A stretch of DNA of 64,000 nucleotides from an uncultured Planctomycetaceae bacterium (GCA_964427875.1 CAYRVX010000006.1:47222-111221), one strand, 5' to 3'; positions 344-17,247 are shown, counted from the first letter of the stretch. Notes: generated by a model from the sequence alone, not told the origin. Program-made: numbers and translations.

Positions 344-519
344 CTTGCGACCTCCCTGGTGGCAGTCCGATGCGACCATCCTTTAGACGATCTGCCGGCG
401 GGAATCAACAGCGCGGCGCCGGCGCGCGAGCGGCGCGCGTCAGCGGATCGTGGGAGCCGCCGGCGTCGGGGGCAGGAAAGTTTGCTAAATATGCCACAGA
501 CTGCTAAGGTAGAGCCATC

Positions 520-1446: not shown

Positions 1447-1632
1447 CCCCGCCCGCCCGGCGGCAGCGGGGCGCGCCGGGCTGCGTGGCCGCGAGCCGAT
1501 CGATCGGCGCATCTCTCTACGATAACGACACTTGTTCTCCCTCGGCTCGCCTGGGGACGCTCCCTCCGCTCCCGCCGGCGAACCGTTGAGCAATCACCCC
1601 TGCGCGGCAAGGGCTCTCCTTCCGAAAAGGGC

Positions 1633-1659
1633 GGCCGGAACAGCACCGGACCGTTTTTT
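1633..1659 (+). terminator. candidate intrinsic terminator downstream of the polyprenyl synthase gene
   Basis: GGCCGG (1633-1638) pairs with CCGGaCC (1646-1652), with a 7-nt loop, followed by G+TTTTTT (1654-1659). Confidence 0.45.
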
Positions 1660-1686
1660 GTTAAATTTTTTACTTGTGCTTATGCT
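1658..1686 (+). promoter_or_regulatory. candidate sigma70-type promoter for the hdr/nuo/mvh operon
   Basis: TTGTTA (1658-1663), a 17-nt spacer, then TATGCT (1681-1686), inside a conspicuously AT-rich patch (1654-1700) of a GC-rich genome, about 145 nt upstream of the hdrC start. Confidence 0.35.
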
Positions 1687-1829
1687 ATGCTGAATGATGA
1701 AGTCGAACTATCCGTTTGGCATTGTTGTCGCAAGCGGCCGCCAGGTACTGTGCAGCCGTGGTCGGTCCCAGGCCACGGCGTCAGAGACGCGGCTTGGCTG
1801 AACGCAATACCCAGGCAAAGGAGCGTATA

Positions 1830-2399
1830 GTGGCTGCCACCGAGGCCAAGGATCTTAACCGGGAATTCCTGCGGCGGGTCCGCGAGCTGCCGCAGGGGGA
1901 GAAGATCGACCGGTGCATTCAATGCGGGACGTGCTCGGCGTCTTGTCCGACCAGCGGGGCGATGGACTACGGGCCGCGACAGATCATCGCTGCGCTGCGG
2001 GCGGGGATGATCGACCAGGTGCTCGGGTCCAACACCGTCTGGCTGTGCGCATCGTGTTACTCCTGCGCGGTGCGCTGCCCCGCGAAGATCCCCTTTACCG
2101 ACGTGATGTACGAGCTGAAGCGCCTCGGCACCGAGCACGGGATCTACCCCGGCAGGAGCACCAGCGCCGTGATGGCCAAGGCCTTCAGCGAAGTGGTCGA
2201 CAGCCATGGCCGAAACGCCGAACCGAAGCTGCTTCGCAAGTACTACCTGCGGACCAACCCGCTGAAGATGCTGGGGCAGATGAAGCTGGTCATGCGGATG
2301 ATGGCCCGGGGCAGGATCGACCTTTTCCCCCACACGATCAAAGGGATCGACGGTCTCCGCGAGATGATGACCGCGGCCGAGGAGAACGGAAGAAAATGA
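1830..2399 (+). CDS. hdrC: heterodisulfide reductase subunit C (2x[4Fe-4S] ferredoxin-like)
   Basis: CIQCGTCSASCP and CASCYSCAVRCP motifs. GTG start at 1830 is preceded by AAGGAG (1818-1823). The longer ORF from 1716 has an Arg/Ala-rich, non-protein-like N-terminus. Confidence 0.85.
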   Translation: MAATEAKDLNREFLRRVRELPQGEKIDRCIQCGTCSASCPTSGAMDYGPRQIIAALRAGMIDQVLGSNTVWLCASCYSCAVRCPAKIPFTDVMYELKRLGTEHGIYPGRSTSAVMAKAFSEVVDSHGRNAEPKLLRKYYLRTNPLKMLGQMKLVMRMMARGRIDLFPHTIKGIDGLREMMTAAEENGRK

Positions 2400-3289
2400 A
2401 CACGACCAACAAGACTGCCTTCCCTTATTTCCCCGGGTGTTCGGCCATGGCGGCGAACAGGGCGTACGACGTGTCGACCCGGAGCGTCGCCGGCGTCCTC
2501 GGGGTCGAGCTGGTGGAGCTGGACGACTGGAACTGCTGCGGCGCGACGGCTTACGTGGCGCTCAACGAGAAGCACGCTCTCGTCCTCTCGGCGCGAAACC
2601 TGGCCCTGGCCGAAAAGGCCGGCGACGACTTGGTGACGATCTGCAACGGCTGCTATCTGGCCCTCAGGAAGGCCAACGAGCACATCATCGAGGATGCCAA
2701 GGTGCAGGCCCAGGTCCAGGAGGCCCTGTCCGCTGGCGGCATGAGCTACGAAGGCGGCGTCCGCGTTCGGCACTTGCTCGACGTGGTGGTCAACGACCTG
2801 GGCGAGGAGGCCGTGCGCCCGCACGTCACCAACCCGCTGACCGGCCTGAAGGTGGCCCCGTATTACGGCTGCCAGATCACCCGGCCCTTCAGCGATATCG
2901 ACGACGCCGAAGACCCGCAGATGATGGACAGGCTCATCGAGTGGCTCGGCGCCGAGGCCGTGCCCTTTGGCATGAAGGCCAAATGCTGCGGGGGGTTGAT
3001 GATGACCACACAGCCGGAGATCGGTCTGGAACTCACCGGGAAGATCCTGAAGAACGCCCGGGACGGGGGCGCCGATTGTGTCATAACGACTTGTCCGCTC
3101 TGCCAGATCAACCTGGAGGCCTACCAGGCTGAAGTGGGCGAGGCGATGGGCGCCGACTGCGAGATTCCGGTCCTTTACTTCACGCAACTGATGGGCGCGG
3201 CCTTCGGGCTCGGCTCGGAGGACCTGGCCCTGAAAGATTCCCTCACGCCGGTTGAGGCGTTGTTTGCCGAGAAGGTGCAGGTTCCATGA
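2396..3289 (+). CDS. hdrB: heterodisulfide reductase subunit B (two CCG domains)
   Basis: MNTTNKTAFPYFPGCS..., with two CCG motifs (DDWNCCGATAY and KAKCCGGLMM) plus CPLCQINL. The ATG at 2396 overlaps the hdrC stop (ATGA). Confidence 0.9.
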   Translation: MNTTNKTAFPYFPGCSAMAANRAYDVSTRSVAGVLGVELVELDDWNCCGATAYVALNEKHALVLSARNLALAEKAGDDLVTICNGCYLALRKANEHIIEDAKVQAQVQEALSAGGMSYEGGVRVRHLLDVVVNDLGEEAVRPHVTNPLTGLKVAPYYGCQITRPFSDIDDAEDPQMMDRLIEWLGAEAVPFGMKAKCCGGLMMTTQPEIGLELTGKILKNARDGGADCVITTCPLCQINLEAYQAEVGEAMGADCEIPVLYFTQLMGAAFGLGSEDLALKDSLTPVEALFAEKVQVP

Positions 3290-4590
3290 ACAGCAACAAC
3301 GGAAAAGAGCGGATCGGGGTCTACATCTGCCACTGCGGGACGAACATCTCCCACACGGTGGACGTCAAGGCGGTCGCCGACTACGCCCGCACGCTCCCCG
3401 GCGTCGTTAAGGTGCGGGAGTACAAGTACATGTGCTCCGATCCGGGACAGGACCTGATCAAGAAGGACATCGAGGAGGACCGGCTCACTCGCGTGGTGGT
3501 CTCCTCGTGCTCGCCGCTGATGCACGAGGAGACTTTCCGCGACGCGTGTGAGGACGCCGGGCTGAACCGCTTCCTCTTCCAGATGTCCAACATCCGCGAG
3601 CAGTGCTCCTGGGTGCATTCGGACCGCGCAAAGGCCACCGCCAAGGCCAAGCGCCTGATCAGGGCGGCCGTCCGGCGGGTCAGTTGGCACAAGCCGATGG
3701 AGGTCCGCGAGGCACCCGTCCACCCCGACGCGCTCGTCGTCGGGGCCGGCATCGCCGGGATCGAGGCGGCCCTGAAACTCGCCGACGCCGGCAAGAAGGT
3801 CTACCTCGTCGAGAAGGAGCCCTCGATCGGCGGGCACATGGCCAAGTTCGACAAGACCTTCCCCACCCTGGACTGCGCCGCCTGCATCCTCACCCCCAAG
3901 ATGGTGCAGGTGGGCAAGCACCCCAACATCAAGCTGATGACCTACTCCGAGGTCGAGGAGGTCTCGGGGTACGTCGGCAACTTCAAGGTGAAGATCCGCC
4001 GGAAGGCGCGGTTCATCGACGAGGAGAAGTGCACCGGCTGCGGCGATTGCATCCAGAACTGCCTCGTCCGGAACAAGGCTTATCTCGAGCCGCCGGTCAT
4101 CCCGGAGGTCCAGATCGACGAAGATAAGCGCGCCCTCGTGGACCGGATCGCCGGCAAGTATGAGGGCGACGGCGCGACGCTGGTGCCCATACTTCAGGAC
4201 ATCAGCGCCGAACTGAACTGGCTGCCGCCGGAAGTGCTGGGGAGGGTCTCCGAGGTAAAGGGCATACCGCTGGAGCACGTGATCCGGCTGGCGACGTTCT
4301 ACAAGTCGTTCAGCCTCAAACCGAGGGGAAAGCACGTGATAAACGTGTGTCTCGGCACCGCCTGCCACGTGAGGGGCGCCCCGAGGATCGTGGACAGGCT
4401 CGAGCGGGAGCTGGGCATCAACGTCGGAGAGACTACCAGCGACATGAAGTTCACCCTGGAGACCGTTCGGTGCGTCGGCTGTTGCGGCCTGGCGCCGGTG
4501 GTCATGGTGGGCGACGAGTTCTACGGGAAACTGACTCCGGGCAAGGCGGCCAAGCTGATCGACACGCTCGCCGCAGCTGATAAAGGATGA
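3286..4590 (+). CDS. fusion protein: HdrA N-terminal half (N-terminal Cys domain, FAD-binding GxGxxG, first ferredoxin Cys motif) joined to a NuoE/HoxE-type thioredoxin-like [2Fe-2S] domain
   Basis: aa 1-260: IGVYICHCGTNI...YKYMCSDPGQ...NIREQCSWVH, VVGAGIAGIEAAL, FPTLDCAACILTPKM, EEKCTGCGDCIQNC (HdrA-like). aa about 280-434: LVPILQDI...VCLGTACHVRG...VRCVGCCGLAPVV (NuoE-like 4-Cys pattern). ATGA overlap with hdrB. Confidence 0.85.
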   Translation: MNSNNGKERIGVYICHCGTNISHTVDVKAVADYARTLPGVVKVREYKYMCSDPGQDLIKKDIEEDRLTRVVVSSCSPLMHEETFRDACEDAGLNRFLFQMSNIREQCSWVHSDRAKATAKAKRLIRAAVRRVSWHKPMEVREAPVHPDALVVGAGIAGIEAALKLADAGKKVYLVEKEPSIGGHMAKFDKTFPTLDCAACILTPKMVQVGKHPNIKLMTYSEVEEVSGYVGNFKVKIRRKARFIDEEKCTGCGDCIQNCLVRNKAYLEPPVIPEVQIDEDKRALVDRIAGKYEGDGATLVPILQDISAELNWLPPEVLGRVSEVKGIPLEHVIRLATFYKSFSLKPRGKHVINVCLGTACHVRGAPRIVDRLERELGINVGETTSDMKFTLETVRCVGCCGLAPVVMVGDEFYGKLTPGKAAKLIDTLAAADKG

Positions 4591-4593
4591 ACC

Positions 4594-4977
4594 ATGGCGA
4601 AGATCAAGATTGAGGACCTGGAGAACATCCGTGAGCGCATGGCGAAGACCATGTCTCTGCGTGGCGGCGAGACTCGCGCGAAGATCACCGTGCACATGGG
4701 CACGTGCGGGATCGCCGCCGGCGCCAGGAAGGTCATGAGCGCCCTGATGAAGCTGCTGGAGCAGCGGGACGAGACGGACATCGTCGTCACGACCTCGGGC
4801 TGCGCCGGGCTTTGCAGCCGCGAACCCATGATGACGGTGGAGATCGAGGGAAAGGCGCCGGTGAAGTACGTCGACCTCGATGAGGCCAAGGCGGAGAAGA
4901 TCTTCCGGGAACACGCCGTGTCCGGGACCGTGGTCGAGGAGTACGCACTCGCCGTCGGCAGCGAGCGGCGCGGATAG
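4594..4977 (+). CDS. thioredoxin-like [2Fe-2S] ferredoxin (HndB-like small subunit)
   Basis: 127 aa. KITVHMGTCGIAAGA...TTSGCAGLCSREPMM is the pattern typical of the small (2Fe-2S) subunit found in Hnd/HydABC-type operons. Confidence 0.8.
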   Translation: MAKIKIEDLENIRERMAKTMSLRGGETRAKITVHMGTCGIAAGARKVMSALMKLLEQRDETDIVVTTSGCAGLCSREPMMTVEIEGKAPVKYVDLDEAKAEKIFREHAVSGTVVEEYALAVGSERRG

Positions 4978-5004
4978 CAGCCTGGAAACCAAGGAGACAC
5001 GCCG

Positions 5005-6831
5005 GTGAAGTCATATCGAATGCACCTGATGCTCTGCGGCGGGACGGGATGCGTCTCCAACAGAGCGTTCGATGTCAGGGAAGCGCTGGAAAAAGAGCTC
5101 AAGAAGCACGACCTCCAGGATGAGATCGCCATCGTGGTGACGGGCTGCAACGGCTTCTGCGCGCAGGGGCCGGTGATGGTGGTCCAGCCCGACGGGATCT
5201 TCTATCAACTGCTTACCGTCAAGGACGTCCCCAACCTCGTGGAGGAGCATTTCCTCAAGGGCAGGCCCGTCGAGCGGCTGATGTTCACGCCTCCCGGCGA
5301 GGAGGCGCCCATGCCCAAGATGAGCGACATCGGCTTCTTCGCGAAGCAGCGGCTGATCGCCCTGAGGAATCGCGGGCTTATAGATCCCGAGAAGATCGAA
5401 GAGTACATCGGCCGCGGAGGCTACTCGGCGCTGGCCAAGGCCCTCACGCAGATGGAGCCCCAGGACATCGTGGAAGAGATCAAAAAGTCCGGGCTCCGCG
5501 GCAGGGGCGGCGCCGGGTTCCCCACCGGGCGAAAGTGGGAACTGTGCAGGAACGCCAAGGGCGACGTGAAGCACCTCGTCTGCAACGGCGACGAGGGCGA
5601 TCCCGGCGCGTTCATGGACCGCAGCATCATCGAGTCCGATCCCCACTCGGTCCTGGAGGGGATGATCATCGGCGCGCGGGCGATCGGCGCTTCTCACGGC
5701 CATGTCTACATAAGGAACGAGTACCCCCTTGCCCTCAAGAGACTCTCTCTGGCGATCGAGCAGGCCAGGGAGTACGGCCTGCTCGGCAAGGATATCCTGG
5801 TCGCGGGCTTCGACTTCGACATCTCGGTCCAGCGCGGGGCCGGGGCGTTCGTCTGCGGGGAAGAGACGAGCCTGCTCAGCTCGCTGCAAGGGCTGCCGCC
5901 GGAGCCTCGTGTCAGGCCGCCTTTCCCGGTGGAGTCCGGCATACGGGGCGAGCCCACCAACATCAACAACGTTGAGACCTGGGCCACCGTGGCTGAGATC
6001 ATCAGCCGCGGGGCCGACTGGTTCGCCGGCATCGGGACCGAGACGAGCAAGGGAACCAAGGTGTTCAGCCTCGTCGGCAAGGTGAGAAACACGGGCCTGG
6101 TGGAGGTCCCGATGGGCATCACCGTGCGCGAGATCGTCTTCGACATCGGCGGGGGGATACCCGAAGACAAGGAGTTCAAGGCCGTCCAGACCGGCGGGCC
6201 GTCCGGCGGCTGCATCCCCGCGAGCCTGCTGGACCTGCCCATCGACTACGAGAAGCTCGCCGAGGCGGGCTCGATGATGGGCTCGGGCGGACTGATCGTG
6301 ATGGACGAGGACACCTGCATGGTTGACCTGGCCAGGTACTTCCTCGACTTCCTGAACGACGAGTCCTGCGGCAAGTGCACCGCCTGCCGCGAGGGGGTGG
6401 ACGTGATGTGTGGCATCCTGACGAACATCTGCGAGGGCAACGGCAAGGAAGGCGACATCGAGCTTCTCGAGGAGCTGGGCAACGCGGTCAAGGACGGCTC
6501 TCTCTGCGGGCTCGGCGCGACGGCGCCGAACCCGGTCCTGACGACCATCCGCTACTTCCGCGACGAGTACGAGGCCCACATCAGGGACAAGAGCTGCCCG
6601 GCCGGCGTCTGCAAGGCCCTCTTCCACTACAAGATTGATGCGGAGAAATGCACCGCCTGCGGGCTCTGCAAGAAGCAGTGCCCCTACGATGCCATTGAGG
6701 GCGCGAAGGAAGTTCCTCACACGATCGACATGGAGAAATGCACCACGTGCGGTGCGTGCTATGACGCGTGCAATTTCGACGCCGTAATGAAGGTCCCGAA
6801 CGGCAAGGTGAGAGTGCCGGCTCAAGTGTGA
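5005..6831 (+). CDS. NuoF/HndC/HydB-like NAD(P)H-binding flavoprotein subunit (N-terminal [2Fe-2S] Trx-like domain, FMN/NADH core, C-terminal 2x[4Fe-4S])
   Basis: GRGGAGFPTGRKWE (FMN site), CNGDEGDPGAFMDR, ESCGKCTACREG (N3-type cluster), C-terminal CTACGLCKKQCP and CTTCGACYDACN. GTG start with AAGGAG 8 nt upstream. Confidence 0.9.
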   Translation: MKSYRMHLMLCGGTGCVSNRAFDVREALEKELKKHDLQDEIAIVVTGCNGFCAQGPVMVVQPDGIFYQLLTVKDVPNLVEEHFLKGRPVERLMFTPPGEEAPMPKMSDIGFFAKQRLIALRNRGLIDPEKIEEYIGRGGYSALAKALTQMEPQDIVEEIKKSGLRGRGGAGFPTGRKWELCRNAKGDVKHLVCNGDEGDPGAFMDRSIIESDPHSVLEGMIIGARAIGASHGHVYIRNEYPLALKRLSLAIEQAREYGLLGKDILVAGFDFDISVQRGAGAFVCGEETSLLSSLQGLPPEPRVRPPFPVESGIRGEPTNINNVETWATVAEIISRGADWFAGIGTETSKGTKVFSLVGKVRNTGLVEVPMGITVREIVFDIGGGIPEDKEFKAVQTGGPSGGCIPASLLDLPIDYEKLAEAGSMMGSGGLIVMDEDTCMVDLARYFLDFLNDESCGKCTACREGVDVMCGILTNICEGNGKEGDIELLEELGNAVKDGSLCGLGATAPNPVLTTIRYFRDEYEAHIRDKSCPAGVCKALFHYKIDAEKCTACGLCKKQCPYDAIEGAKEVPHTIDMEKCTTCGACYDACNFDAVMKVPNGKVRVPAQV

Positions 6832-6862
6832 AACAGGCCCCGGGAACGAGCAACAGGCGGGC

Positions 6863-7288
6863 ATGCAGATCGCAGCCGCCGCGTCCCGCGACGGGATGTT
6901 GGCTGTGGCCGGCCGGGAGATGATCACGCCGATGACGCTTGACGAGGCCCGAGACATCCTGGAAGCGGACGTCATTGTCGGCACCGATCTGGAGAAGATC
7001 GATGTGGAAATGGGCTGTGGGGCCGACCTGATGAGCGATGTGTTGGCCTTCACGAAAACGGGCGCCCTTCTCCTGACCGGGCTGACCAACGCCCAGGCGG
7101 TTCGCACCGCCGAGATGGCGGACGTCGTCGGCATCTGCTTCGTTCGAGGAAAGAGGCCGCCTCAAGAGACGGTCGAGCTGGCCAGGCGGAGCGGCATGCC
7201 GCTGCTGGCCACGCGACTGCCGATGTTTGAGAGCTGCGGCCGCCTCTATCGCAACGGGTTGGAAGGATGTTCTGAGAGGAACGAGTGA
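6863..7288 (+). CDS. DRTGG-domain protein (start may be the ATG at 6920 or 6932)
   Basis: ...MTLDEARDILEADVIVG...GCGADLMSDVLAF...ALLLTGLTNAQAVRTAEMADVVGICFVRG. It is a paralog of the ORF at 8231-8605. Confidence 0.7.
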   Translation: MQIAAAASRDGMLAVAGREMITPMTLDEARDILEADVIVGTDLEKIDVEMGCGADLMSDVLAFTKTGALLLTGLTNAQAVRTAEMADVVGICFVRGKRPPQETVELARRSGMPLLATRLPMFESCGRLYRNGLEGCSERNE

Positions 7289-8334
7289 GCTCCACCAAGG
7301 ATGTGCATGTGGGCCCGGACATAAAGACAACCAAGACCCAGGAGATGGTTTACGAGATGAAGGTCGGCGACGTGATGACCAAGGACGTCATCACGGTGCG
7401 ATCCAAGGACCCTTTGGGCTCCTTGCGAGACGTGTTCCGCTCGAACCGCATCTCCGGGCTGCCCGTGCTCGATCGGGGCCGGCTGGTCGGCCTCATCAGC
7501 CTCGAGGACTTCATCAAGTGGCTGGCCGACAGGCAGGAAGACTGTGCGATAGAAGACAAGATGACCGCAGACGTCGTGACCTTGTACGAGGATGACCCGC
7601 TGGTGCTGGCGGTCGGCCGGTTCGAGAAGAGCGGCCTGGGGAGGTTCCCCGTCATCGACCGCGATCAGGGCAAGCTCGTGGGGATACTGACCAAGGGCGA
7701 CGTCATCGAGGGGCTCCTGAAGGAGCTCGAGATCGACTATCAGGAAGAGGAGATCCACCGCTACCGGGCAAGTCACATTTTCCAGGACATTGAGGCGGAC
7801 GACACGACGCTCCTGTTCCAATACGATGTCAAGGGACAGGATTTCAGACAGGCCGGCTCCGGCGCCAGCCGCCTCAAACGGACGCTGAAGCACCTGGGCA
7901 TACGCCCCGACGTCGTGCGGCGGATAGCGATCGCCAGCTATGAGGCGGAAATGAACCTGGTCATCTTCACGGAGGGCGGACAGATGCGTGCCAGGGTCCG
8001 GCCGGCCAGGGTGTTCATCGAGATTGAGGACTCCGGGCCGGGCATACCTGACATCGAGAAGGCGATGGAGCCGGGCTACTCCACGGCCCCGGACTCGGTC
8101 AGGGAGCTGGGCTTCGGCGCGGGGATGGGCCTGGTCAACATCAAGAAGAGCGCCGATGTGTTCCACATTGATTCGAAACCAGGCAAGGGAACGATTCTGA
8201 AGGCCTCTTTCTTCACCAACGAGAAGAACCATGAAACTCAGTCGTCTGGTGAGCGAGCTCGGTCTGGAAGTAAGGTCAGCCCGGAGAAGCCTCGAAAACG
8301 AGGTGACCGGAGGCCACGCCAGCGATCTGCTTAG
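7285..8334 (+). CDS. CBS-pair + GHKL (HATPase_c, RsbW/anti-sigma-kinase-like) ATPase protein
   Basis: Two CBS repeats (VMTKDVITV...GLPVLD, MTADVVTL...RFPVIDRDQGKLVGILTKGDV), then IEIEDSGPGIPDIEKAMEPGYST...GFGAGMGLVNIKK (N-, G1- and G2-box-like). The GTG start overlaps the previous stop (GTGA). The last about 35 aa overlap the next gene. Confidence 0.75.
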   Translation: MSSTKDVHVGPDIKTTKTQEMVYEMKVGDVMTKDVITVRSKDPLGSLRDVFRSNRISGLPVLDRGRLVGLISLEDFIKWLADRQEDCAIEDKMTADVVTLYEDDPLVLAVGRFEKSGLGRFPVIDRDQGKLVGILTKGDVIEGLLKELEIDYQEEEIHRYRASHIFQDIEADDTTLLFQYDVKGQDFRQAGSGASRLKRTLKHLGIRPDVVRRIAIASYEAEMNLVIFTEGGQMRARVRPARVFIEIEDSGPGIPDIEKAMEPGYSTAPDSVRELGFGAGMGLVNIKKSADVFHIDSKPGKGTILKASFFTNEKNHETQSSGERARSGSKVSPEKPRKRGDRRPRQRSA

Positions 8335-8605
8335 CGACGTCATCGGCAACAGCCGGGAAGGTGATATCTGGATTACACTGCAAGTTCACGTGAACGTCGT
8401 GGCCGTGGCAAGCATGAAGGAGCTTTCCGGGATCATACTCGTCAATGGAAGAGAGCCGGACGGCGACACCATCGAGAAGGCAGAGGCCGAAGGCATACCG
8501 GTCATGGTGAGCGGGCTGCCCGCGTTTGAGCTCGTCGGGCGTCTTTACGGCCTCGGGCTCCGGGGCGTGAGCGCCGAAGGCGCAGCCGGGCCGGCCGGCG
8601 CGTGA
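8231..8605 (+). CDS. DRTGG-domain protein
   Basis: MKLSRLVSELGLEV...GGHASDLLSDVIGN...GIILVNGREPDGDTIEKAEAEGIPVMV. 124 aa, the typical size of stand-alone DRTGG proteins. Confidence 0.75.
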   Translation: MKLSRLVSELGLEVRSARRSLENEVTGGHASDLLSDVIGNSREGDIWITLQVHVNVVAVASMKELSGIILVNGREPDGDTIEKAEAEGIPVMVSGLPAFELVGRLYGLGLRGVSAEGAAGPAGA

Positions 8606-8627
8606 TGCAGGAGAAGTTTCGGCGGAC

Positions 8628-9818
8628 ATGAAAGAGCTGAGAGCGGACTTGCACGTACATACGTGCCTTTCGCCGTGTGCAGAGGCCGAGATGGTGCCCT
8701 CGGCGATCGTGAGGCAGGCAAGGGCCGCAGGCTTGGATATGATCGGGATATGTGACCACAATTCGGCTGAGAACGTCGCCGCCGTGGCGAGGGCCGGCGA
8801 GAGAGAGTCGATCTCCGTCCTGCCGGGGATCGAGATCACCTCTCGCGAAGAGGTGCATATCGTCGGCCTGTTCCCCACAGAGACCGAGGCCCTGCGCGTT
8901 CAGGCGGTGGTGGACCGGCGCCTGCCTGGAGAGAACGACGAGGAGGCGTTCGGCCCGCAGACGATCGTTGATGAATGGGACCGACAGACCGGCAGGAGCA
9001 CGAAGCTGCTGATAGGGGCCACCGACCTGGCCGTCGAGGAGGTCGTGGAGGCCATTCACGATTGCGGCGGCCTGGCCGTCGCGGCCCACGTCGACCGCGA
9101 GAGGTTCAGTATCGTCGGCCAGTTGGGCTTCATCCCGAAGGGGCTGAAGCTGGATGCGGTCGAGGTGTCGGCCGGAGCGTCGGCCAGAACGTGCTACGAG
9201 TTTCCCGTGATCACGTCCTCGGACGCCCACCGCCTTACGGACATCGGCCGGGGCTCAACCTTGTTCCTCGCCGAAGAGGCGAGCATCGGCGAGATCCGCA
9301 AGGCCCTGCGCGAGGAGGACGGCCGAAGGGTAGCCACCAATATGCAAGACCTCTCGCTGCACATCCTGGACATCGTGGAGAACTCCATCGCGGCGTCGGC
9401 GACCCGCGTCAAGATCGTGATCGAGGAGGACTCGCGAAGCGACCTGTTGTCGCTGGAGATCCAGGACAACGGCCGGGGCATGGACGCCAAGGCACGGGAG
9501 AAGGCCCTCGACCCGTTCTTCACCACGAGGACGACGCGGAAGGTCGGCCTTGGCCTTCCCCTGCTGGCCCAGGCCGCACGGGACACCGGCGGGGACCTCG
9601 AGCTGACTTCCGAACCAGGCCGGGGCACCACGATCAGGGCGGTCTTTCAGCTCAGCCACCCCGACTGCAAGCCACTGGGGGACATCACCGAAACACTGCG
9701 GACAATCCTGTGCGGTCAACCGGAACTGGACCTGGAGTTCGCATACAGGAAAGACTCGAAACTGATAGCCGCCCTTGGCGGCAACCAGTCGGCCAACGAG
9801 GAGTCAGAGAATGGTTAG
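8628..9818 (+). CDS. PHP (polymerase/histidinol-phosphatase) domain fused to a GHKL-type ATPase domain
   Basis: N-terminus: ADLHVHTCLSPCAE...GICDHNS...AAHVDRE...SSDAH (PHP metal ligands). C-terminus: LHILDIVENSI...LEIQDNGRGMD...GLGLPLL...EPGRGTT (HATPase_c). Confidence 0.8.
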   Translation: MKELRADLHVHTCLSPCAEAEMVPSAIVRQARAAGLDMIGICDHNSAENVAAVARAGERESISVLPGIEITSREEVHIVGLFPTETEALRVQAVVDRRLPGENDEEAFGPQTIVDEWDRQTGRSTKLLIGATDLAVEEVVEAIHDCGGLAVAAHVDRERFSIVGQLGFIPKGLKLDAVEVSAGASARTCYEFPVITSSDAHRLTDIGRGSTLFLAEEASIGEIRKALREEDGRRVATNMQDLSLHILDIVENSIAASATRVKIVIEEDSRSDLLSLEIQDNGRGMDAKAREKALDPFFTTRTTRKVGLGLPLLAQAARDTGGDLELTSEPGRGTTIRAVFQLSHPDCKPLGDITETLRTILCGQPELDLEFAYRKDSKLIAALGGNQSANEESENG

Positions 9819-11577
9819 TTTGACGATCGACGGCAACACCGTGGAAGTGGAAGAGGGCTCGACCCTTCTCCAGGCCGCCGAGAAGCTGGGGATACAGATC
9901 CCCACTCTCTGCCACAACAAGGCGCTGGCGCCCTACGGTGCGTGTCGCATCTGCCTGGTGGAAGTGGAAGATGAGCGCGGCTCGAAGCTCCAGGCCTCCT
10001 GCACGTATCCCGCCCAGGAGGGGCTCGTGGTCAAGACCTCGACCGACCGCGTGCTGAGGACCCGCAAGATCATGATGGAGCTCATGCTGGCCCGATGCCC
10101 GGAGGTCGAGTCGATCAAGCAGATGGCCGCGGAGATGGGGATCGAAGAGCCCCGCTTTCCCAAGAAGAACAAGGACTGCATCCTCTGCGGTCTCTGTGTG
10201 AGGGTCTGCCAGGAGAGGATGAACATAGGCGCGGTCAACTTCGTCAACCGGGGCACCGAGAAGCTGATCTCGCCCCCCTACGACAAGCACTCCCCCATCT
10301 GCATAGCCTGCGGGGCGTGCAAGGTGGTCTGCCCGACAGACTGCATCGATCTGTCGGAGATCACGGCCCACACGCCCAGGCCGATCCCCTTGGAGTTCGA
10401 CGAGGGGCTCAGCAGCCGCTCGAGCGTCTACGTCCCCTTCGCGCAGGCAGTGCCCAACGTGCCGGTCATCGACAAGGACAGTTGCATCCGTCTGAAGACC
10501 GGAGAGTGCGGGGCGTGCGAGGCGTTCTGCGAGGCCGGCGCGATCGTCTTCGACCAGGAGGACTCCATCGACGAGGTTGACGTCGGCGCGATCATCGTGG
10601 CGACGGGCTTCAGGCTCTTCGACAGCAGGCAGATCACGCGGTACGGCTACGGGAAGTTCGACAACGTCCTCAGCTCTCTGGAGTTCGAGAGGCTCAGCCA
10701 CGCCAGCGGGCCGACGGGGGGGCGGGTCCTCACGAAGGACGGCCGCGAGCCGCGGGCCGTCGCCATCCTCCACTGCGTCGGCAGCCGCGATGAGAACTAC
10801 GCCGAGTACTGCTCCCGTGTCTGCTGCATGTACTCGCTGAAGTTCGCACACCTCGTCAGGGAGAAGACCGACGCGGAGGTCTACAACTGCTACATCGACA
10901 TCCGGGCGTTCGGCAAGGGCTACGAGGAGTTCTACAAGCGCATCCTCGGCGAGGGGGTGCACTTCATCCGCGGCAAGTGCGCCGAGGTGACCGACGTGGC
11001 CGAGACGCCCGAGGAGGAGGGCAAGCTCGTCGTCGTCGCCGAGGACACCCTTCTGGGCATCACCCGCCGCTTGCCCGTGGACATGGTCATCCTCTCGGCG
11101 GCGTTGGTGCCGGGCGAGGACTCCGACAAGCTCGCCAGGACCTTCTCGATCAACTGCGCCCAGGGCGGGTTCTTCCTCGAGAAGCACCCCAAGCTCGCAC
11201 CGGTGGACTCCATCTCGGACGGCATCTTCCTCGCCGGCGCCTGCGTGGGCCCGAAGGACATCCCCGACTCGGTGGCCCAGGGCGCCGCGGCCGCGGCCGG
11301 GGCGCTCAGCCTCATCGACAGCGGAAAGGTCGTCCTCGAGCCCATCACCGCCGAGATCGACGAAGAACGCTGCGCCGGGTGTCGGCTGTGTATCGCCAAC
11401 TGCCCCTACGCCGCGATTGACTATGATGAAGAAAAGAAGGTCTCGGTGGTCACCGAGGAACTCTGCAAGGGATGCGGCACGTGCGTGGCCGGCTGCCCCT
11501 CCGGGGCCGCCCACCAGAAGAACTTCGAGGACGAGCAGATCTTCTCGGAGATCGAGGGCATCCTGATCGGAGCCTGA
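9811..11577 (+). CDS. fusion protein: plant-type [2Fe-2S] + 2x[4Fe-4S] module (NuoG/HydA/FdhA N-terminal-like) joined to the C-terminal half of HdrA
   Basis: aa 1-180: MVSLTIDGNTVEV...LCHNKALAPYGACRICLVEVE, CILCGLCVRVC, CIACGACKVVCP. aa about 195-588: VYVPFAQAVP, DVGAIIVATGF, HCVGSRDENYAEYCSRVCCMYS, FLAGACVGPKDIPDSVAQG, CAGCRLCIANCP, CKGCGTCVAGCP (HdrA-like). No H-cluster motifs. The ATG at 9811 overlaps the previous stop. Confidence 0.85.
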   Translation: MVSLTIDGNTVEVEEGSTLLQAAEKLGIQIPTLCHNKALAPYGACRICLVEVEDERGSKLQASCTYPAQEGLVVKTSTDRVLRTRKIMMELMLARCPEVESIKQMAAEMGIEEPRFPKKNKDCILCGLCVRVCQERMNIGAVNFVNRGTEKLISPPYDKHSPICIACGACKVVCPTDCIDLSEITAHTPRPIPLEFDEGLSSRSSVYVPFAQAVPNVPVIDKDSCIRLKTGECGACEAFCEAGAIVFDQEDSIDEVDVGAIIVATGFRLFDSRQITRYGYGKFDNVLSSLEFERLSHASGPTGGRVLTKDGREPRAVAILHCVGSRDENYAEYCSRVCCMYSLKFAHLVREKTDAEVYNCYIDIRAFGKGYEEFYKRILGEGVHFIRGKCAEVTDVAETPEEEGKLVVVAEDTLLGITRRLPVDMVILSAALVPGEDSDKLARTFSINCAQGGFFLEKHPKLAPVDSISDGIFLAGACVGPKDIPDSVAQGAAAAAGALSLIDSGKVVLEPITAEIDEERCAGCRLCIANCPYAAIDYDEEKKVSVVTEELCKGCGTCVAGCPSGAAHQKNFEDEQIFSEIEGILIGA

Positions 11578-11601
11578 ACCACTCGAACGGAGAACGCATA
11601 G

Positions 11602-12045
11602 ATGGCCGAAGAGCAGTTCCAACCGAAGATCGTCGGGTTCCTTTGCCGCTGGTGCTCGTACACGGGGGCGGACCTGGCCGGCACCAGCCGCATCCAGTAC
11701 CCCTCGAACCTGGCCGCCATCCGGGTGATGTGCTCGGGCCGCGTCGATCCCACGTTCGTGGTCAAGGCGCTCAGCGACGGCGCCGACGGCGTCCTGATCG
11801 CAGGCTGCCATCCCGGCGACTGTCATTACTCGGAAGGCAACTACAAGGCAATGCGCCGCTACCCGATGCTCCTGAAACTCCTGGAGCAGTTCGGCATCGA
11901 GCGCCAGCGCGTTCGCCTCGAGTGGATCTCGGCCTCCGAGGGCGAGCGGTTCGCCGAGGTCGTCAGGGAGTTCACCGAGCAGATCAGGTCGCTGGGCCCG
12001 CTCAACTGGAACGAGAGGGTCGCGGCCTGTTGCGAAGCAACATAG
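11602..12045 (+). CDS. mvhD: MvhD/FlpD-type hydrogenase delta subunit ([2Fe-2S] electron-transfer adaptor)
   Basis: KIVGFLCRWCSYTGADLAG...VMCSGRVDP...LIAGCHPGDCHY, the characteristic MvhD Cys pattern. Confidence 0.85.
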   Translation: MAEEQFQPKIVGFLCRWCSYTGADLAGTSRIQYPSNLAAIRVMCSGRVDPTFVVKALSDGADGVLIAGCHPGDCHYSEGNYKAMRRYPMLLKLLEQFGIERQRVRLEWISASEGERFAEVVREFTEQIRSLGPLNWNERVAACCEAT

Positions 12046-12054
12046 GGACGAGAA

Positions 12055-13023
12055 ATGGCAAAACCGAAAGTGGCATTCTATTGGTGTGCCTCCTGCGGCG
12101 GCTGCGAAGAGACCGTCGTGGACCTGGCCGAGGACATCCTCAAGGTCGTGGAGGCGGTGGACATCGCGCTCTGGCCGGTGGCCCTGGACTTCAAGCTCAA
12201 GGACGTCCGCGCCTGGGAGCCGGGCGAGGTGGCCGTGGCCTTCATCAACGGGGCCGTGCGCCTCAGCGAGCAGGAAATGTGGGTCAAACTGCTGCGGGAG
12301 AAATGCCCGCTGGTGGTGGCCTTCGGCTCGTGCGCCCACCTGGGCGGGATTCCCGGCCTGGCGAACTTCACCAGCCGGGAGGAGATCTTCGCGAACAAGT
12401 ATCACCGTTCGCCCTCGGTGGACAATCCCGACGGCGTGGTGCCGCAGGAAGAGACGAACGTGGCCGGCTACGACCTCGAGCTGCCCAGGTTCTGGAAGGA
12501 CGTCAAGGCGCTCGACCAGGTGATCGACGTGGATTACTACCTCCCGGGCTGCCCGCCGCCGCCGGAACTGGTGGCCAAGGCCATCAACGCCATCCTCGCC
12601 GGCGACCTGCCGCCCAAGGGCTCGGTCCTCGCCCCGGAGAAGGCCCTCTGCGAGACCTGCCCGCGAAACGACTCCAAGCCCGAGGACCTGACCATCGCCT
12701 CCTTCAAGCGGGTCGCGACAAGCACGCCGGACCCGGAGAAGTGCTTCCTGGCCGACGGCTTCCTGTGCATGGGGCCGGCCACCCGCGGCGGCTGCGGCGA
12801 ACGCTGCATCAACGCCAACATGCCCTGCCGCGGCTGCTTCGGGCCCACGCCCGACGCCCTCGACGCCGGCCTCAAGATCCTCAGCGCCGTCGCCTCCCGC
12901 GGCGAGGCCGACACCGCCGAGTCCGCCGAGGCGCTGGCAGAGTCCCTTGTCGATCCGCTGGGCACGTTCTACCGTTTCTCCCTGCCGGCTTCCATGCTCA
13001 GGCGGCGAGTCAGTAAGGAATGA
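12055..13023 (+). CDS. mvhG: [NiFe] hydrogenase small subunit, cytoplasmic group-3 (MvhG-like)
   Basis: KVAFYWCASCGGCEE...AFGSCAHLGGIPG...GCPP...CRGCFGP. No Tat signal. Adjacent to mvhD and the large subunit. Confidence 0.85.
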   Translation: MAKPKVAFYWCASCGGCEETVVDLAEDILKVVEAVDIALWPVALDFKLKDVRAWEPGEVAVAFINGAVRLSEQEMWVKLLREKCPLVVAFGSCAHLGGIPGLANFTSREEIFANKYHRSPSVDNPDGVVPQEETNVAGYDLELPRFWKDVKALDQVIDVDYYLPGCPPPPELVAKAINAILAGDLPPKGSVLAPEKALCETCPRNDSKPEDLTIASFKRVATSTPDPEKCFLADGFLCMGPATRGGCGERCINANMPCRGCFGPTPDALDAGLKILSAVASRGEADTAESAEALAESLVDPLGTFYRFSLPASMLRRRVSKE

Positions 13024-14489
13024 AGACCATGAGTAAGCGAATCACCATAGACCCCATCACCCGCCTCGAAGGCCACGGCAAGATCGAGATCTTCCTCAAC
13101 GACGCCGGCGACGTGGAGCGGGCCTTCTTCCAGGTGCCCGAGCTGCGCGGCTTCGAGACGTTTTGCCTCGGCCGGCCGGCCGAGGAGATGCCGCGCATTA
13201 CGCCGCGGATCTGCGGCGTCTGCCCCACGGCCCACCACATGGCGTCCACCAAGTGCCTGGACGACCTCTGGAAGGTCGACCCGCCTCCGGCGGCGAAGAA
13301 GCTCCGCGAGCTGGCATACAACGCGTTCATGCTCGAGGACCACTATATCCATTTCTTCTACCTCGCCGCCCCCGACTTCGTCGTCGGACCCACCGCGCCC
13401 GCGGCGGAGCGCAACATCCTCGGCGTCATCGGCAAGGTCGGCCTGGAGATCGCCGGGAAGGTCATCCGCGTCCGCCGCGAGACGCGCCAGATGATGCAGA
13501 CCATGATGGGCAAGGTGATCCATCCGGTCTTCGGCCTGCCGGGCGGCGTGTCGCGCGGCATCAGCGAGGAGGAGCGCGGCGAGTTCCTCAAGACGGCCGA
13601 TTTCGCCGTCGAGTTCGCCCAGTTCGCCCTCCAGCTCTTCGACGACGTGGTCCTGAAGAACGAGGATTACCTCAACCTCGTCCTGAACGACGCGTACGCC
13701 CACAAGACGTACTACATGGGCCTGGTGGACGAGGACAACAAGGTCAACTTCTACGACGGGAAGGTCCGCGTCGTCAGCCCCACGGGCGAGGAGGTGGCCA
13801 AGTTCGCGCCGCGGGAGTACCTCGATCACATTGCCGAGCACGTCGAGCCTTGGAGCTACGTCACCTTCCCCTACCTCAAGAACATCGGCTGGAAGGGCTT
13901 CGTGGACGGCCCCGACAGCGGCGTCGTCCGGGCCGCGCCGCTGGCGCGGCTCAATGCCGCCGACGGCATGGCCACGCCGCTGGCCCAGCAGGCCTACGAG
14001 AAGATGTACGAGACGCTCGGCGGCAAGCCCGCCCACGCAACGCTCGCCTTCCACTGGGCGAGGCTCGTCGAGGCGCTCTACTCCGCCGAACGCATGAAGG
14101 AGCTGCTCGAGGACCCCGAGATCACCAGCGACGAGATCCGCAACGAGCCCACGGAAACGCCCTCCGAAGGCGTCGCCATCGTCGAGGCCCCGCGAGGGAC
14201 CCTCGTCCACCATTACTTCACCGACGACGACGGCATCCTGACGAAGGTCAACCTCATCGTGGCCACCAACTTCAACGCCGCGCCCATCGCGATGTCCGTC
14301 GAGAAGGCCGCCAAGGGCATGATCCACGGCGGCGAGGTCAACGACGGGCTGCTGAACATGGTGGAGATGGCCTTTCGCGCGTACGATCCGTGCCACGCCT
14401 GCGCCACCCACAGCCTGCCCGGGCAGATGCCGCTCGTGGCCACGATCCGCGACAGCTCCGGGAAGGTGATCCGGGAAATCCGGCGGTGA
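13020..14489 (+). CDS. mvhA: [NiFe] hydrogenase large subunit, cytoplasmic group-3 (MvhA-like)
   Basis: N-terminal ITRLEGHG and RICGVCPTAHH (L1 motif). C-terminal DPCHACATHS (L2 motif), followed by a cleavable extension. The start may instead be the ATG at 13029. Confidence 0.9.
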   Translation: MKTMSKRITIDPITRLEGHGKIEIFLNDAGDVERAFFQVPELRGFETFCLGRPAEEMPRITPRICGVCPTAHHMASTKCLDDLWKVDPPPAAKKLRELAYNAFMLEDHYIHFFYLAAPDFVVGPTAPAAERNILGVIGKVGLEIAGKVIRVRRETRQMMQTMMGKVIHPVFGLPGGVSRGISEEERGEFLKTADFAVEFAQFALQLFDDVVLKNEDYLNLVLNDAYAHKTYYMGLVDEDNKVNFYDGKVRVVSPTGEEVAKFAPREYLDHIAEHVEPWSYVTFPYLKNIGWKGFVDGPDSGVVRAAPLARLNAADGMATPLAQQAYEKMYETLGGKPAHATLAFHWARLVEALYSAERMKELLEDPEITSDEIRNEPTETPSEGVAIVEAPRGTLVHHYFTDDDGILTKVNLIVATNFNAAPIAMSVEKAAKGMIHGGEVNDGLLNMVEMAFRAYDPCHACATHSLPGQMPLVATIRDSSGKVIREIRR

Positions 14490-14971
14490 CTTCCCCCCCG
14501 CGGCCAATCCTGCTGCTTGCCCTCGGCAATGACATCATGGGCGACGACGGGGCGGCCCTGGCCGCCGCGCGGGCGCTCAAGCAGGATCCCGTCGACGACG
14601 TCGATCTTGTAGAGTCGGGCGAGGCGGGCCTGGCCCTGCTGGATGCCATGGCGGGCTACGATCGCGTCCTGCTGCTGGACTCGATCACCACCGGCCGGCA
14701 TCGGCCGGGAACGGTCCTGGAGTTCTCGAGCGAGGACTTCGACAATGTCGTCGGGCCCTCGCCCCACTACGCCGGGCTTCCGGAAGTGCTCGAGCTGGCC
14801 AGGCGTCTGAACGTCGACTTCCCCGAGGAGGTCCGCGTGCTGGCCTTGGAGATCGAGCGGCCGATGGACTTCCGCGAGACGCTCAGCCCGCGGATCGAGC
14901 AGGCCCTGCCCGCCTACGTGGAACGGGCCTTGGAGATCCTTCGCCAATGGAAAGGAGCACAGGACCGATGA
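14486..14971 (+). CDS. hydrogenase maturation endopeptidase (HycI/HoxW/FrhD family)
   Basis: ILLLALGNDIMGDDGAALAAA...VLLLDSI...SPHYAGLPEVLELA. The GTG start overlaps the large-subunit stop (GTGA). It lies inside the longer spurious ORF 13163-14971. Confidence 0.8.
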   Translation: MTSPPRPILLLALGNDIMGDDGAALAAARALKQDPVDDVDLVESGEAGLALLDAMAGYDRVLLLDSITTGRHRPGTVLEFSSEDFDNVVGPSPHYAGLPEVLELARRLNVDFPEEVRVLALEIERPMDFRETLSPRIEQALPAYVERALEILRQWKGAQDR

Positions 14972-16434
14972 ACAGACGCGAGTTCCTTCGGATACTGACC
15001 GGCTCGGCCGCCCTGGCTGTCGGGCGTCGTTTCGCACCGGCCGCCGCGGACCGAGAGAAGACCGACCCGCCCCTCAACTTCCTGCTGATCACCGCCGACG
15101 ACATGAACTGGGACTCCGTCGGCGTCTACGGCTGCAAGGTGCCGGGCATCACGCCGAACATCGACCGGCTCGCCGCCGGGGGGCTGCGGTTCCAGCGGGC
15201 GCACATAACCATCGCGGTCTGCCAGCCGTGCCGGCAGGTCCTCATGACCGGCCGATACCCCCACCGAAACGGCGGCATGGGCTTCTACGGCATCCGCCAG
15301 AACGTGCCCACGCTCCAGGAGGCGCTGCGGGAGGCCGGCTACTTCCAGGGCATCCTCGGCAAGGTGCCCCACCTCGCGCCCGCCGGGAAGTTCCCCTGGG
15401 ACGTGATCGTAAAGGCCGGTCAGCTCCGCAACGGCCGGGGGCCGGAGCTCTATCGCAAGGCCGCCGCCGACTTCTTCGCCAAGGCCAAGGCGGCCGGAAA
15501 GCCGTTCTTCCTGATGGCCAACTCGCACGACCCGCACCGGCCGTTCGTGGGGGCCCGGCGCAGGAGAAAGAAGCCCCGACCCGGCGCCGCCCAGAAGGCG
15601 TCCGCACCTGCCGCCAGCCGGATCTACGAGCCCCAGGAAGCCATCGTGCCCGCCTTCCTGCCGGACATCCCCAACGTGCGGAGAGAGGTCGCCCAGTACT
15701 TCGGGTCGGTCCATCGCTGCGACGAGACGGTGGGCGCGGTGCTGTCGGCGCTGGCGGAGTCCGCCCTGGCCGACAACACGCTGGTGATGTTCTTCAGCGA
15801 TCACGGCATGGCGTTTCCCTTCGCCAAGACGAACTGCTACTTCAACTCGACGCGCACGCCGTGGATCTGCCGCTGGCCGGGCAGGATCAAGCCCGGCACG
15901 GTCGATCGCGAGCACTTCATCTCGGGCATCGACTTCATGCCGACGATCCTCGCCGCCGCGGGCGTCACGGCGCCTGCGGGCATGGACGGAAAGAGCTTCC
16001 TGCCGCTGCTGACCGGCGGCAAGCAGGCCGGGCGCGAGGAGGTCTTCACCGTCTTCCACGAGACCGCCGGCCGGAAGAAGTACCCCATGCGGTGCCTCCA
16101 GGACCGCCGCTTCGGGTACATCTACAACGCCTGGGCCGACGGCAAGACGGTCTTCCGGAACGAGTCGCAGTCGGGGCTGAGCATGAACGCCATGAAGGCC
16201 GCAGCCCAGACGGACGAGAGGATCGCCGCCCGCGTGAAGCTCTTCCTCTACCGCGTGCCGGAAGAGCTCTACGACTTCGAGAACGACCCCGCCGCGCTGA
16301 AAAACCTCGTCGACGACCCGAAGTGCAAGGACGTGCTCAAGAGGATGCGCGCCAGGGCCCTGGCGACCATGACCGACAAGAAGGACCCCCTCGCGCCGAC
16401 GTTCCGCGAGTTCCTGGGCGGCCTCAGCGCTTGA
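14968..16434 (+). CDS. Tat-exported sulfatase (formylglycine-dependent arylsulfatase family)
   Basis: MNRREFLRIL Tat-like signal. LLITADDMNWD and the CQPCRQVLMTGR (CxPxR) active-site motif. The ATG overlaps the protease stop (ATGA). Confidence 0.85.
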   Translation: MNRREFLRILTGSAALAVGRRFAPAAADREKTDPPLNFLLITADDMNWDSVGVYGCKVPGITPNIDRLAAGGLRFQRAHITIAVCQPCRQVLMTGRYPHRNGGMGFYGIRQNVPTLQEALREAGYFQGILGKVPHLAPAGKFPWDVIVKAGQLRNGRGPELYRKAAADFFAKAKAAGKPFFLMANSHDPHRPFVGARRRRKKPRPGAAQKASAPAASRIYEPQEAIVPAFLPDIPNVRREVAQYFGSVHRCDETVGAVLSALAESALADNTLVMFFSDHGMAFPFAKTNCYFNSTRTPWICRWPGRIKPGTVDREHFISGIDFMPTILAAAGVTAPAGMDGKSFLPLLTGGKQAGREEVFTVFHETAGRKKYPMRCLQDRRFGYIYNAWADGKTVFRNESQSGLSMNAMKAAAQTDERIAARVKLFLYRVPEELYDFENDPAALKNLVDDPKCKDVLKRMRARALATMTDKKDPLAPTFREFLGGLSA

Positions 16435-16972: not shown

Positions 16973-17247
16973 TTCGGCTGTCTCCCGGCCGCTGAGGGTC
17001 CGGCCAATGGACATACGCCCCGCCGCGAGGGAGGTCAAATCAATTCGCGCCGGTCGTCGGCCGGGAATCGGGGGCTTGCGGCCAGCGGGTCGTGCCGCCT
17101 CTTTTTGGGGGGTCTGATCCCGAAGGGATCGGATAGGATATGGGCGCAGCGAGGAGGAGGCGGCCGGCGGGTTCGGCGGCAAAACGCGAGCTGGGTCACC
17201 AGATGAAGGCAATATCGCCCGGGCGCGGGCGTTAAACGGAATGGCAC

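Follow-up and report, generated by a model that had tools for sequence, protein, structure and literature searches.

Electron bifurcation is the route by which strict anaerobes obtain low-potential reductant without ATP, and four enzyme families are known to carry it out. To our knowledge, only one characterised enzyme (BCRII) joins two bifurcating families in series. NAD(P)H-linked variants of HdrA are also known, namely HdrL, Flx-Hdr and Hdr-MetFV. Described here is an operon from an uncultured Planctomycetaceae bacterium, located on a stretch of 64,000 nucleotides (nt) (GCA_964427875.1 CAYRVX010000006.1:47222-111221; hereafter the window). Its new features are an hdrA gene split by a Bfu cassette, a double fusion at the low-potential port of HdrA and a link to an Mvh hydrogenase. 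The operon and its relatives point to a second series arrangement, which is widespread, differently wired and H2-linked. Searches of full-text literature brought up no account of an HdrA that is split and fused to NuoE/NuoG; Appel et al. 2021 (BBA) may mention it.

The low-potential electron of methanogen Hdr and of BamE leaves by the inserted ferredoxin domain, and in the solved complexes the input runs through the C-terminal ferredoxin domain and MvhD (PMC13518236; bioRxiv 10.64898/2026.04.10.717634). Type-2 Bfu enzymes, with the cluster set A1/A2/A4, receive their electrons via A4 (PMC9304861, PMC12318220). Among the Bfu types of Schut et al. 2022, from which metagenomic data were left out, there is no class with the present arrangement. 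A precedent for joining an HdrA-type and a Bfu platform, missed by an initial annotation of the window, is BamBCDEFGHI (PMC9304861; bioRxiv 10.64898/2026.04.10.717634). In this complex (BCRII), BamI joins the C-terminal ferredoxin domain of BamE, confurcation is followed by bifurcation, and the tungsten enzyme receives its electrons from the inserted domain (bioRxiv 10.64898/2026.04.10.717634).

The split hdrA gene and its fusions

Two of the fourteen operon genes each carry one half of HdrA:

3286-4590, + strand: gene 3, HdrA N-terminal half (residues 1 to ~268) fused to NuoE/BfuC (residues ~276-434), from PDB and Pfam matches
9811-11577, + strand: gene 10, Type-2 BfuA N-domain (residues 1 to ~185) fused to HdrA C-terminal half (residues ~189-588), from PDB matches

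The product of gene 3 was matched to HdrA residues 2-262 of PDB 8rvu_a/5odc_A (E = 1e-101) and, in its NuoE part, to HydC 8a6t_C (E = 1e-44) and to Pfam 2Fe-2S_thioredx (positions 2-144 of 145, E = 5.7e-48). Its HdrA half holds the cysteines of the N-terminal cluster, the GxGxxG loop for flavin adenine dinucleotide (FAD), TLDCAAC and motif 1 of the inserted ferredoxin domain (C249-C259, nt 4030-4062), after which ~16 residues lead into a complete NuoE domain. The C-terminal half was found in gene 10, matching residues 256-642 of 643 of PDB 8rvv_A (E = 5.5e-117), with motif 2 of the inserted domain (C225/233/236/240), CVGSRD...CSRVCC and the C-terminal 2x[4Fe-4S] domain. Here, the BfuA-type N-domain joins directly to the segment that normally follows HdrA motif 1. 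This N-domain was matched to those of WorA (9mqx_A) and HydA (8a6t_A) at E ~1e-38. It contains a [2Fe-2S] site (C34/45/48/64) and two [4Fe-4S] motifs, of which the first begins at C123 and the second at C164. As in WorA, the segment for the His-ligated A3 cluster is deleted, which leaves the cluster set A1/A2/A4.

Across genes 3 and 10, HdrA is complete, with the FAD site and six cluster motifs retained and nothing lost. It is not one polypeptide; its motifs are divided over two open reading frames (ORFs) that lie 5.2 kb from each other and each include a fused Bfu part. The break interrupts the inserted ferredoxin domain, leaving one of its two Cys motifs on either side. The DNA that separates the halves holds NuoF/BfuB, an HndB-like gene and four regulator-like genes. 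In the title of the initial annotation only HdrCB is listed, and its tacit treatment of HdrA as ordinary did not stand, since hdrA is split within the inserted ferredoxin domain.

For comparison, sixteen segments of the window were searched by tblastn against 80 loci taken from a genome scan with gene 10 (534 related loci in all), and the continuity of ORFs was checked. BfuA and the HdrA C-terminal half form one ORF in every split locus, that is in 34 of the 80 loci from at least eight phyla, and the position of the hdrA breakpoint is the same throughout. Carriers comprise Planctomycetota, a Nitrospiraceae metagenome-assembled genome (MAG), Dehalococcoidia and other Chloroflexota, Aminicenantes, Armatimonadota, Coatesbacteria, Fidelibacterota and Eubacteriales-labelled MAGs. 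None of the loci examined was seen to come from a cultured organism. The fusion of the HdrA N-terminal half to NuoE is limited to 15 loci of Planctomycetota and Nitrospiraceae, and elsewhere this half is a separate ORF of 280-300 residues ending just past motif 1. The remaining 46 loci are without the BfuA fusion and are mostly ordinary hdrCBA-mvhDGA operons.

Eleven species-level MAG loci have the full gene order of the window, as does L085, a relative of 91% identity whose flanks are the same. In 4-5 loci (as in L010-L014) a short form occurs that lacks the HndB-like gene and all four regulator genes. Full-length homologues of gene 10 fall into more than 120 clusters at 90% identity, with generic names only, the named ones all being from MAGs; four independent metagenome contigs encode a protein identical to that of gene 10. 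Against L085, the ratio of nonsynonymous to synonymous substitution rates (dN/dS) was 0.11-0.32 for all 14 genes, indicating purifying selection, with 0.11 and 0.19 for the hdrA halves and 0.16 for HdrB/HdrC. A pseudogene or assembly artefact was rejected in view of the four contigs, the number of clusters and these ratios. In a neighbour-joining tree of HdrA C-terminal halves (without support values), the split forms were polyphyletic; a derived tail of the HdrA N-terminal half, common to five phyla, points the opposite way.

Remaining subunits, operon layout and surroundings

The other redox subunits, together with the HndB-like protein and the maturation protease, are encoded as follows:

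1830-2399, + strand: hdrC; Pfam Fer4_8, best NCBIfam family HdrC, two CxxCxxCxxxCP motifs (C29-C39, C73-C83)
2396-3289, + strand: hdrB; Pfam CCG in two stretches, E = 1.5e-30
4594-4977, + strand: HndB/HydD-like thioredoxin-like [2Fe-2S] protein; weak match to Pfam 2Fe-2S_thioredx
5005-6831, + strand: BfuB (NuoF/HydB-like); N-terminal thioredoxin-like [2Fe-2S] domain, site for flavin mononucleotide (FMN) and NAD(H), B1, B2/Zn site, two C-terminal [4Fe-4S] clusters
11602-12045, + strand: mvhD, [2Fe-2S] adaptor; Pfam FlpD positions 1-123 of 123, 188 bits
12055-13023, + strand: mvhG, [NiFe] small subunit; PDB 5odc_E, 235 bits over residues 5-316
13020-14489, + strand: mvhA, [NiFe] large subunit; best NCBIfam family VhuA, 436 bits (below the 800-bit cutoff)
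14486-14971, + strand: hydrogenase maturation endopeptidase (HycI/HybD family); Pfam HycI, TIGR00072 with 98 bits, above cutoff

HdrB contains both CCG domains (at residues 47 and 197), as had been stated, and scored 218 bits against NCBIfam CoB_CoM_SS_B, under the 345-bit cutoff. BfuB was aligned over its full length with A. mobile NiFe-HydB (7t2r_B, 834 bits), without gaps across residues 410-536. The previously reported FMN and N3 motifs of NuoF are intact (Complex1_51K and NADH_4Fe-4S domains, loop GRGGAGFPTG, C455/C458/C461/C501). Likewise, the B2/Zn-site residues (C438, C476, H525, C531, C536), the cluster cysteines for B1 and B3-B5, the N-terminal C11/16/48/52 and the C-terminal motifs at 549 and 579 are kept. 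Judged by these residues, BfuB is a full Bfu-type subunit, and the Bfu parts look functional. The HndB-like protein, to which the N-terminal domain of BfuB is related, has three cysteines in all (C38, C70, C74), whereas that domain has four. Since H34 and the three cysteines are invariant among 17 aligned orthologues and there is no fourth Cys, a 1-His/3-Cys [2Fe-2S] site is suggested.

MvhG is of the long three-cluster Mvh/Vhu type, of which HoxY and A. mobile HydS match the first 188 residues only; a Hox-type group 3d enzyme was discarded, since HoxY covers no further part of MvhG. No twin-arginine motif was found at the N-terminus of MvhG (MAKPKVAFYWCASCGGC), in line with the lack of a twin-arginine translocation (Tat) signal noted before. 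The motifs quoted for the large subunit are present, RICGVCPTAHH at residue 63 and DPCHACATH at residue 456, the latter followed by a 25-residue C-terminal extension. PDB scores of MvhA were 412 bits for 7t2r_D, 365-408 for Vhu/Mvh and 339 for HoxH. Judged from both hydrogenase subunits, from MvhD and from VhuA as the best family, the hydrogenase is Mvh-type, and by this proxy it is assigned to group 3c; family and PDB scores give no sign that the large subunit lies outside group 3c/3d, which would have told against the initial annotation. Motif checks revealed no lost cofactor ligand. No hyp gene was found among the 40 ORFs called in the window, as had been remarked, and no genes related to coenzyme M/coenzyme B (CoM/CoB) or another substrate were seen in the 64 kb; the host is a planctomycete MAG.

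All fourteen genes are co-directional on the + strand (1830-14971) and free of internal stops, as initially annotated. The start/stop overlaps were recovered as quoted (ATGA at 2396, 3286 and 13020; GTGA at 7285 and 14486; 8 nt at 9811), and the other gaps are 3, 27, 31, 22, 24 and 9 nt. Accordingly, the listed junctions with gaps of at most 35 nt held, and the count of six overlaps was one too few, as genes 7 and 8 also overlap. These two belong to the block between the hdrA halves:

6863-7288, + strand: gene 6, DRTGG-domain protein, accessory/regulatory; weak Pfam DRTGG match, conserved in 11 loci
7285-8334, + strand: gene 7, CBS-pair and GHKL ATPase protein, regulator-like; Pfam CBS in two stretches and HATPase_c
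8231-8605, + strand: gene 8, second DRTGG-domain protein; weak Pfam DRTGG match
8628-9818, + strand: gene 9, PHP-domain and GHKL ATPase protein, regulator-like; Pfam PHP, PHP_C and HATPase_c

From ATG 8231, gene 8 overlaps gene 7 out of frame by 104 nt; the JGI gene caller starts it at 8303, with an overlap of 32 nt. ATG 8231 is the most likely start, because the N-terminus (first 24 residues) is conserved from residue 1 in orthologues. An overlap of ~101 nt is also kept in L001, L002, L004 and L005. A frameshift-fused CBS-HATPase-DRTGG product may arise from the overlap at 8231-8334.

Four of the 14 operon genes (DRTGG, CBS-HATPase, DRTGG and PHP-HATPase) are thus regulator-like and encode no redox subunits; they were probably acquired jointly with the Bfu cassette. 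The A. mobile operon has comparable hisK and hydD genes, whose products are absent from the purified enzyme (PMC9304861). In an Aminicenantes MAG (L020, 3856-5710), the DRTGG, CBS-HATPase and PHP-HATPase genes are placed after the gene for the HdrA N-terminal half and before nuoE, in a block that also encodes a HydS-like sensory [FeFe]-hydrogenase-like protein (Fe_hyd_lg_C and a putative Fe-S domain) beside a GHKL ATPase.

The region upstream of the operon was read from the sequence:

1447-1829, + strand: intergenic region; GC stem and T-run at ~1629-1660, AT-rich promoter-like stretch at ~1650-1700, ribosome-binding site AAGGAG at 1818-1823

The AT-rich stretch before hdrC (1650-1700) stands in a genome of 67% GC, and the ribosome-binding site is strong. 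A scan for the sigma-70 consensus gave 0 matches, a consensus to which planctomycete promoters may not conform, and a terminator scan gave 8 matches with 10 +/- 3 expected, so that no internal terminator signal rose above chance; both scans are uninformative. With the same reservation about the consensus, no promoter or terminator signal above chance separates the hdr, nuo and mvh parts. The Rfam scan of positions 1-17500 returned no match.

Downstream, a sulfatase gene (14968-16434) begins with ATG 14968, overlapping the protease stop as ATGA; its N-terminus (MNRREFLRIL) resembles a twin-arginine signal. Because of this overlap and of GGAAAGGAG upstream of the sulfatase, it may be a co-transcribed fifteenth gene. 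The junction is the same in L085, and more distant relatives have no sulfatase there. When the flanking polyprenyl synthetase and the sulfatase were searched against the 80 loci by tblastn, no match was obtained, and hence the flanks are not conserved beyond the closest relative.

Further genes were noted across the window. A 1047-residue protein with many WD40 repeats (45903-49046), two sulfatases, two SASA esterases and a pectate-lyase-like gene fit a polysaccharide-degrading planctomycete. An IS200-like (Y1_Tnp) transposase gene (55113-55793, - strand) adjoins the stretch of lowest GC content at 56-58 kb (0.595 vs ~0.67), and an ORF of 1815 residues (58514-63961, - strand), with a GC content at third codon positions (GC3) of 0.95, had no Pfam match at E <= 1e-4.

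Predicted electron path and competing explanations

That HdrA and NuoF/FMN platforms are merged with a group-3 [NiFe] hydrogenase, as initially annotated, is borne out by the operon and by the covalent fusions (HdrA-N::NuoE, BfuA::HdrA-C); the supercomplex itself is still a prediction. The chances are about even that the operon encodes one soluble Mvh-Hdr-Bfu complex coupling H2, a disulfide, NAD(P) and ferredoxin, with HdrA acting before Bfu. Ferredoxin is a probable fourth substrate, left out of the initial annotation. Such a complex would consist of eight predicted redox polypeptides with the HndB-like protein beside them, and the regulator-like and protease genes would be accessory and non-redox.

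H2 would be oxidised by MvhAG, and electrons would pass via MvhD to the FAD of HdrA. The two HdrA polypeptides would together rebuild the predicted inserted ferredoxin domain. At the FAD, bifurcation would send the high-potential electron over HdrC to HdrB and a disulfide, and the low-potential electron would exit through the inserted domain. In methanogens this exit is open; here it would be closed to free ferredoxin or polyferredoxin, its halves being joined to BfuC (NuoE) and Type-2 BfuA, and the electron would run through A4, A2 and A1 of BfuA to the BfuB/BfuC core (FMN and FeS clusters) and on to NAD(P)+ and ferredoxin. The path from HdrA to Bfu is proposed because each half of the output domain is fused to a Bfu subunit and because MvhD/MvhAG are encoded beside the input side. 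The two-stage cascade in particular, in which HdrA-FAD splits the H2 electrons first and the tethered Bfu core splits the low-potential output again, is put forward tentatively, with the balance of probability somewhat against it. With ferredoxin abbreviated as Fd, the net reaction, which is taken to be reversible, would be:

4 H2 + 2 RS-SR' + NAD(P)+ + Fd(ox) -> 4 thiols + NAD(P)H + Fd(red)

The published potentials are -414 mV for H2, -140 to -281 mV for the heterodisulfide, ~-500 mV for ferredoxin and ~-280 mV for NADH (physiological). By these values the cascade should be downhill at standard conditions, better matched at low H2 pressure, and reversible. If it operates, disulfide reduction would pay for NAD(P)H and reduced ferredoxin where H2 pressures are low, as in sediments.

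Tight junctions, conserved gene order and selection on all 14 genes speak in favour of a joint complex, and several points weigh against the proposed path. The direction of flow and the order of HdrA before Bfu were inferred solely from the point of fusion, and the ferredoxin domain rebuilt from two chains is a prediction. Under standard conditions, passing electrons of ~-500 mV or lower via Bfu to NAD+ would waste energy. The scores of HdrB, HdrC and VhuA lie under the NCBIfam equivalog cutoffs. Moreover, seven split-HdrA loci are without mvh nearby (L015-L017, L021, L022, L029, L031), where Bfu may be the sole electron source, and in BCRII, the one solved complex of Hdr and Bfu, Bfu is the input, via the C-terminal ferredoxin domain and MvhD (bioRxiv 10.64898/2026.04.10.717634). 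In one of the loci without mvh (L017, 11917-16103, a Dehalococcoidia MAG), the split Hdr-Bfu genes are followed by genes for a HoxU-like protein, NuoE, a short non-Bfu NuoF, a MetV-like protein (DUF5981) and a PAS histidine kinase, a set that hints at a link to methylene-tetrahydrofolate reduction.

The last points lead to the opposite order, in which Bfu would confurcate NAD(P)H and reduced ferredoxin and give mid-potential electrons to the HdrA FAD, with Mvh as an alternative input or H2-evolving outlet; the complex would then be mainly an NAD(P)H/Fd:disulfide oxidoreductase or a fermentative H2 producer. BCRII works in this order (bioRxiv 10.64898/2026.04.10.717634; PMC9304861), and besides the loci lacking mvh, the MetV-like gene in one of them is reminiscent of the NADH-dependent HdrABC-MvhD-MetFV complex. 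Similar regulator genes are found in fermentative Bfu hydrogenase operons, L020 even has a HydS-like sensor gene, and the genomic context of sulfatases, esterases and pectate lyase is that of a polysaccharide-degrading heterotroph. However, Bfu enters BCRII at the C-terminal ferredoxin domain and MvhD, whereas here it is fused at the inserted output domain; MvhD/MvhAG are encoded directly beside the input side, and a bifurcating flavin is known to be hard to reduce from its low-potential branch alone. On this evidence the opposite order is considered unlikely, at something like one chance in five.

Alternatively, the operon might encode a Bfu-type [NiFe] hydrogenase (H2 <-> NAD(P)H + Fd(red)), in which the HdrA clusters are mainly a wire between Mvh and Bfu, and HdrBC would either serve as a side branch or as a redox-sensing thiol switch, or be vestigial. 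For both BfuB and the large subunit, the closest solved structures are indeed from A. mobile NiFe-HydABCSL, whose operon also has accessory genes of the hydD/hisK kind (PMC9304861). Yet HdrB/HdrC retain every ligand motif and are under selection like the other genes (dN/dS 0.16), the HdrA FAD and cluster motifs are complete, and the small subunit is of the long Mvh type, not of the short HydS/HoxY type, which together render this explanation improbable. Least of all is expected of a lack of joint function, be it that hdrA was disrupted by a foreign nuoEF cassette (as a pseudogene or artefact) or that independent enzymes share one transcript. The cassette does resemble an imported segment of a Bfu operon with its own regulators, and short forms without these regulators exist; but intact ORFs, one breakpoint in 34 loci of at least eight phyla, the full-length fusion in more than 120 clusters with the identical protein on four contigs, and the dN/dS of both hdrA halves (0.11, 0.19) make it very improbable.

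As the gene fusions mark the touching ports of the Hdr and Bfu modules, the wiring becomes a directly testable hypothesis. Bacterial 'Mvh-Hdr' genes from metagenomes, routinely read as ferredoxin-reducing hydrogenases, may need rereading, and the substrate of bacterial HdrB becomes a sharper question.

Comparison with known systems

With MvhADG-HdrABC/Vhu-Hdr of methanogens (5ODC, 8RVU), the operon shares all six subunit types and their ligand motifs, including the long three-cluster MvhG, the MvhD adaptor, HdrB with two CCG domains and the FAD site and six cluster motifs of HdrA. It differs in that HdrA consists of two polypeptides, the exit is fused to BfuC and BfuA, and the host is a planctomycete.

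A. mobile NiFe-HydABCSL (7T2R) and WorABCSL (9MQX) correspond to it in the complete BfuB and BfuC, the WorA-like A1/A2/A4 set and the HydD-like and GHKL-ATPase genes (PMC9304861). Unlike in this BfuABC family, BfuA would be fed by a whole HdrA-HdrBC-Mvh unit and not by a simple catalytic subunit, and BfuA and BfuC are fused to the HdrA halves. The Hox hydrogenase (group 3d, 5XF9) likewise combines a group-3 [NiFe] hydrogenase with NuoE/NuoF/NuoG-like subunits, but has a short small subunit, HoxF without the extra Bfu clusters, no Hdr and no MvhD.

BamBCDEFGHI (Bam-Bfu/BCRII) is the only characterised complex with Bfu and an HdrA-type module, an MvhD-like adaptor and an HdrBC-like subunit. In the present operon, by contrast, Bfu is attached to the inserted domain, a hydrogenase is at the input side, there is no tungsten subunit, and other fusions and splits are found; HdrA bifurcation followed by Bfu would reverse the wiring of the BamB-I benzoyl-CoA reductase.

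A further likeness concerns the site of the split itself. In four loci with otherwise similar hdrCB and mvhDGA genes (L032, 1569-4961; L034, L026, L045), an HdrL-type HdrA forms a single polypeptide with a GltD/NfnB-like NAD(P)H-FAD insertion of ~480 residues at the position where hdrA is split in the window (Pfam Fer4_20 and Pyr_redox_2 in L032, the same insert by sequence in the others). HdrL was described as a heterodisulfide reductase/glutamate synthase fusion of Desulfobacterium autotrophicum (PMC2702500); it holds one GltD/NfnB-like domain within one polypeptide, whereas here a multi-gene Bfu cassette splits the gene. As the HdrL-type insertion occupies this position too, pyridine-nucleotide modules are considered to attach recurrently to HdrA at its low-potential exit, and the comparison suggests three arrangements at this exit, namely the docking of polyferredoxin, the HdrL-type insertion of a GltD domain, and a whole Bfu operon cassette that splits the gene.

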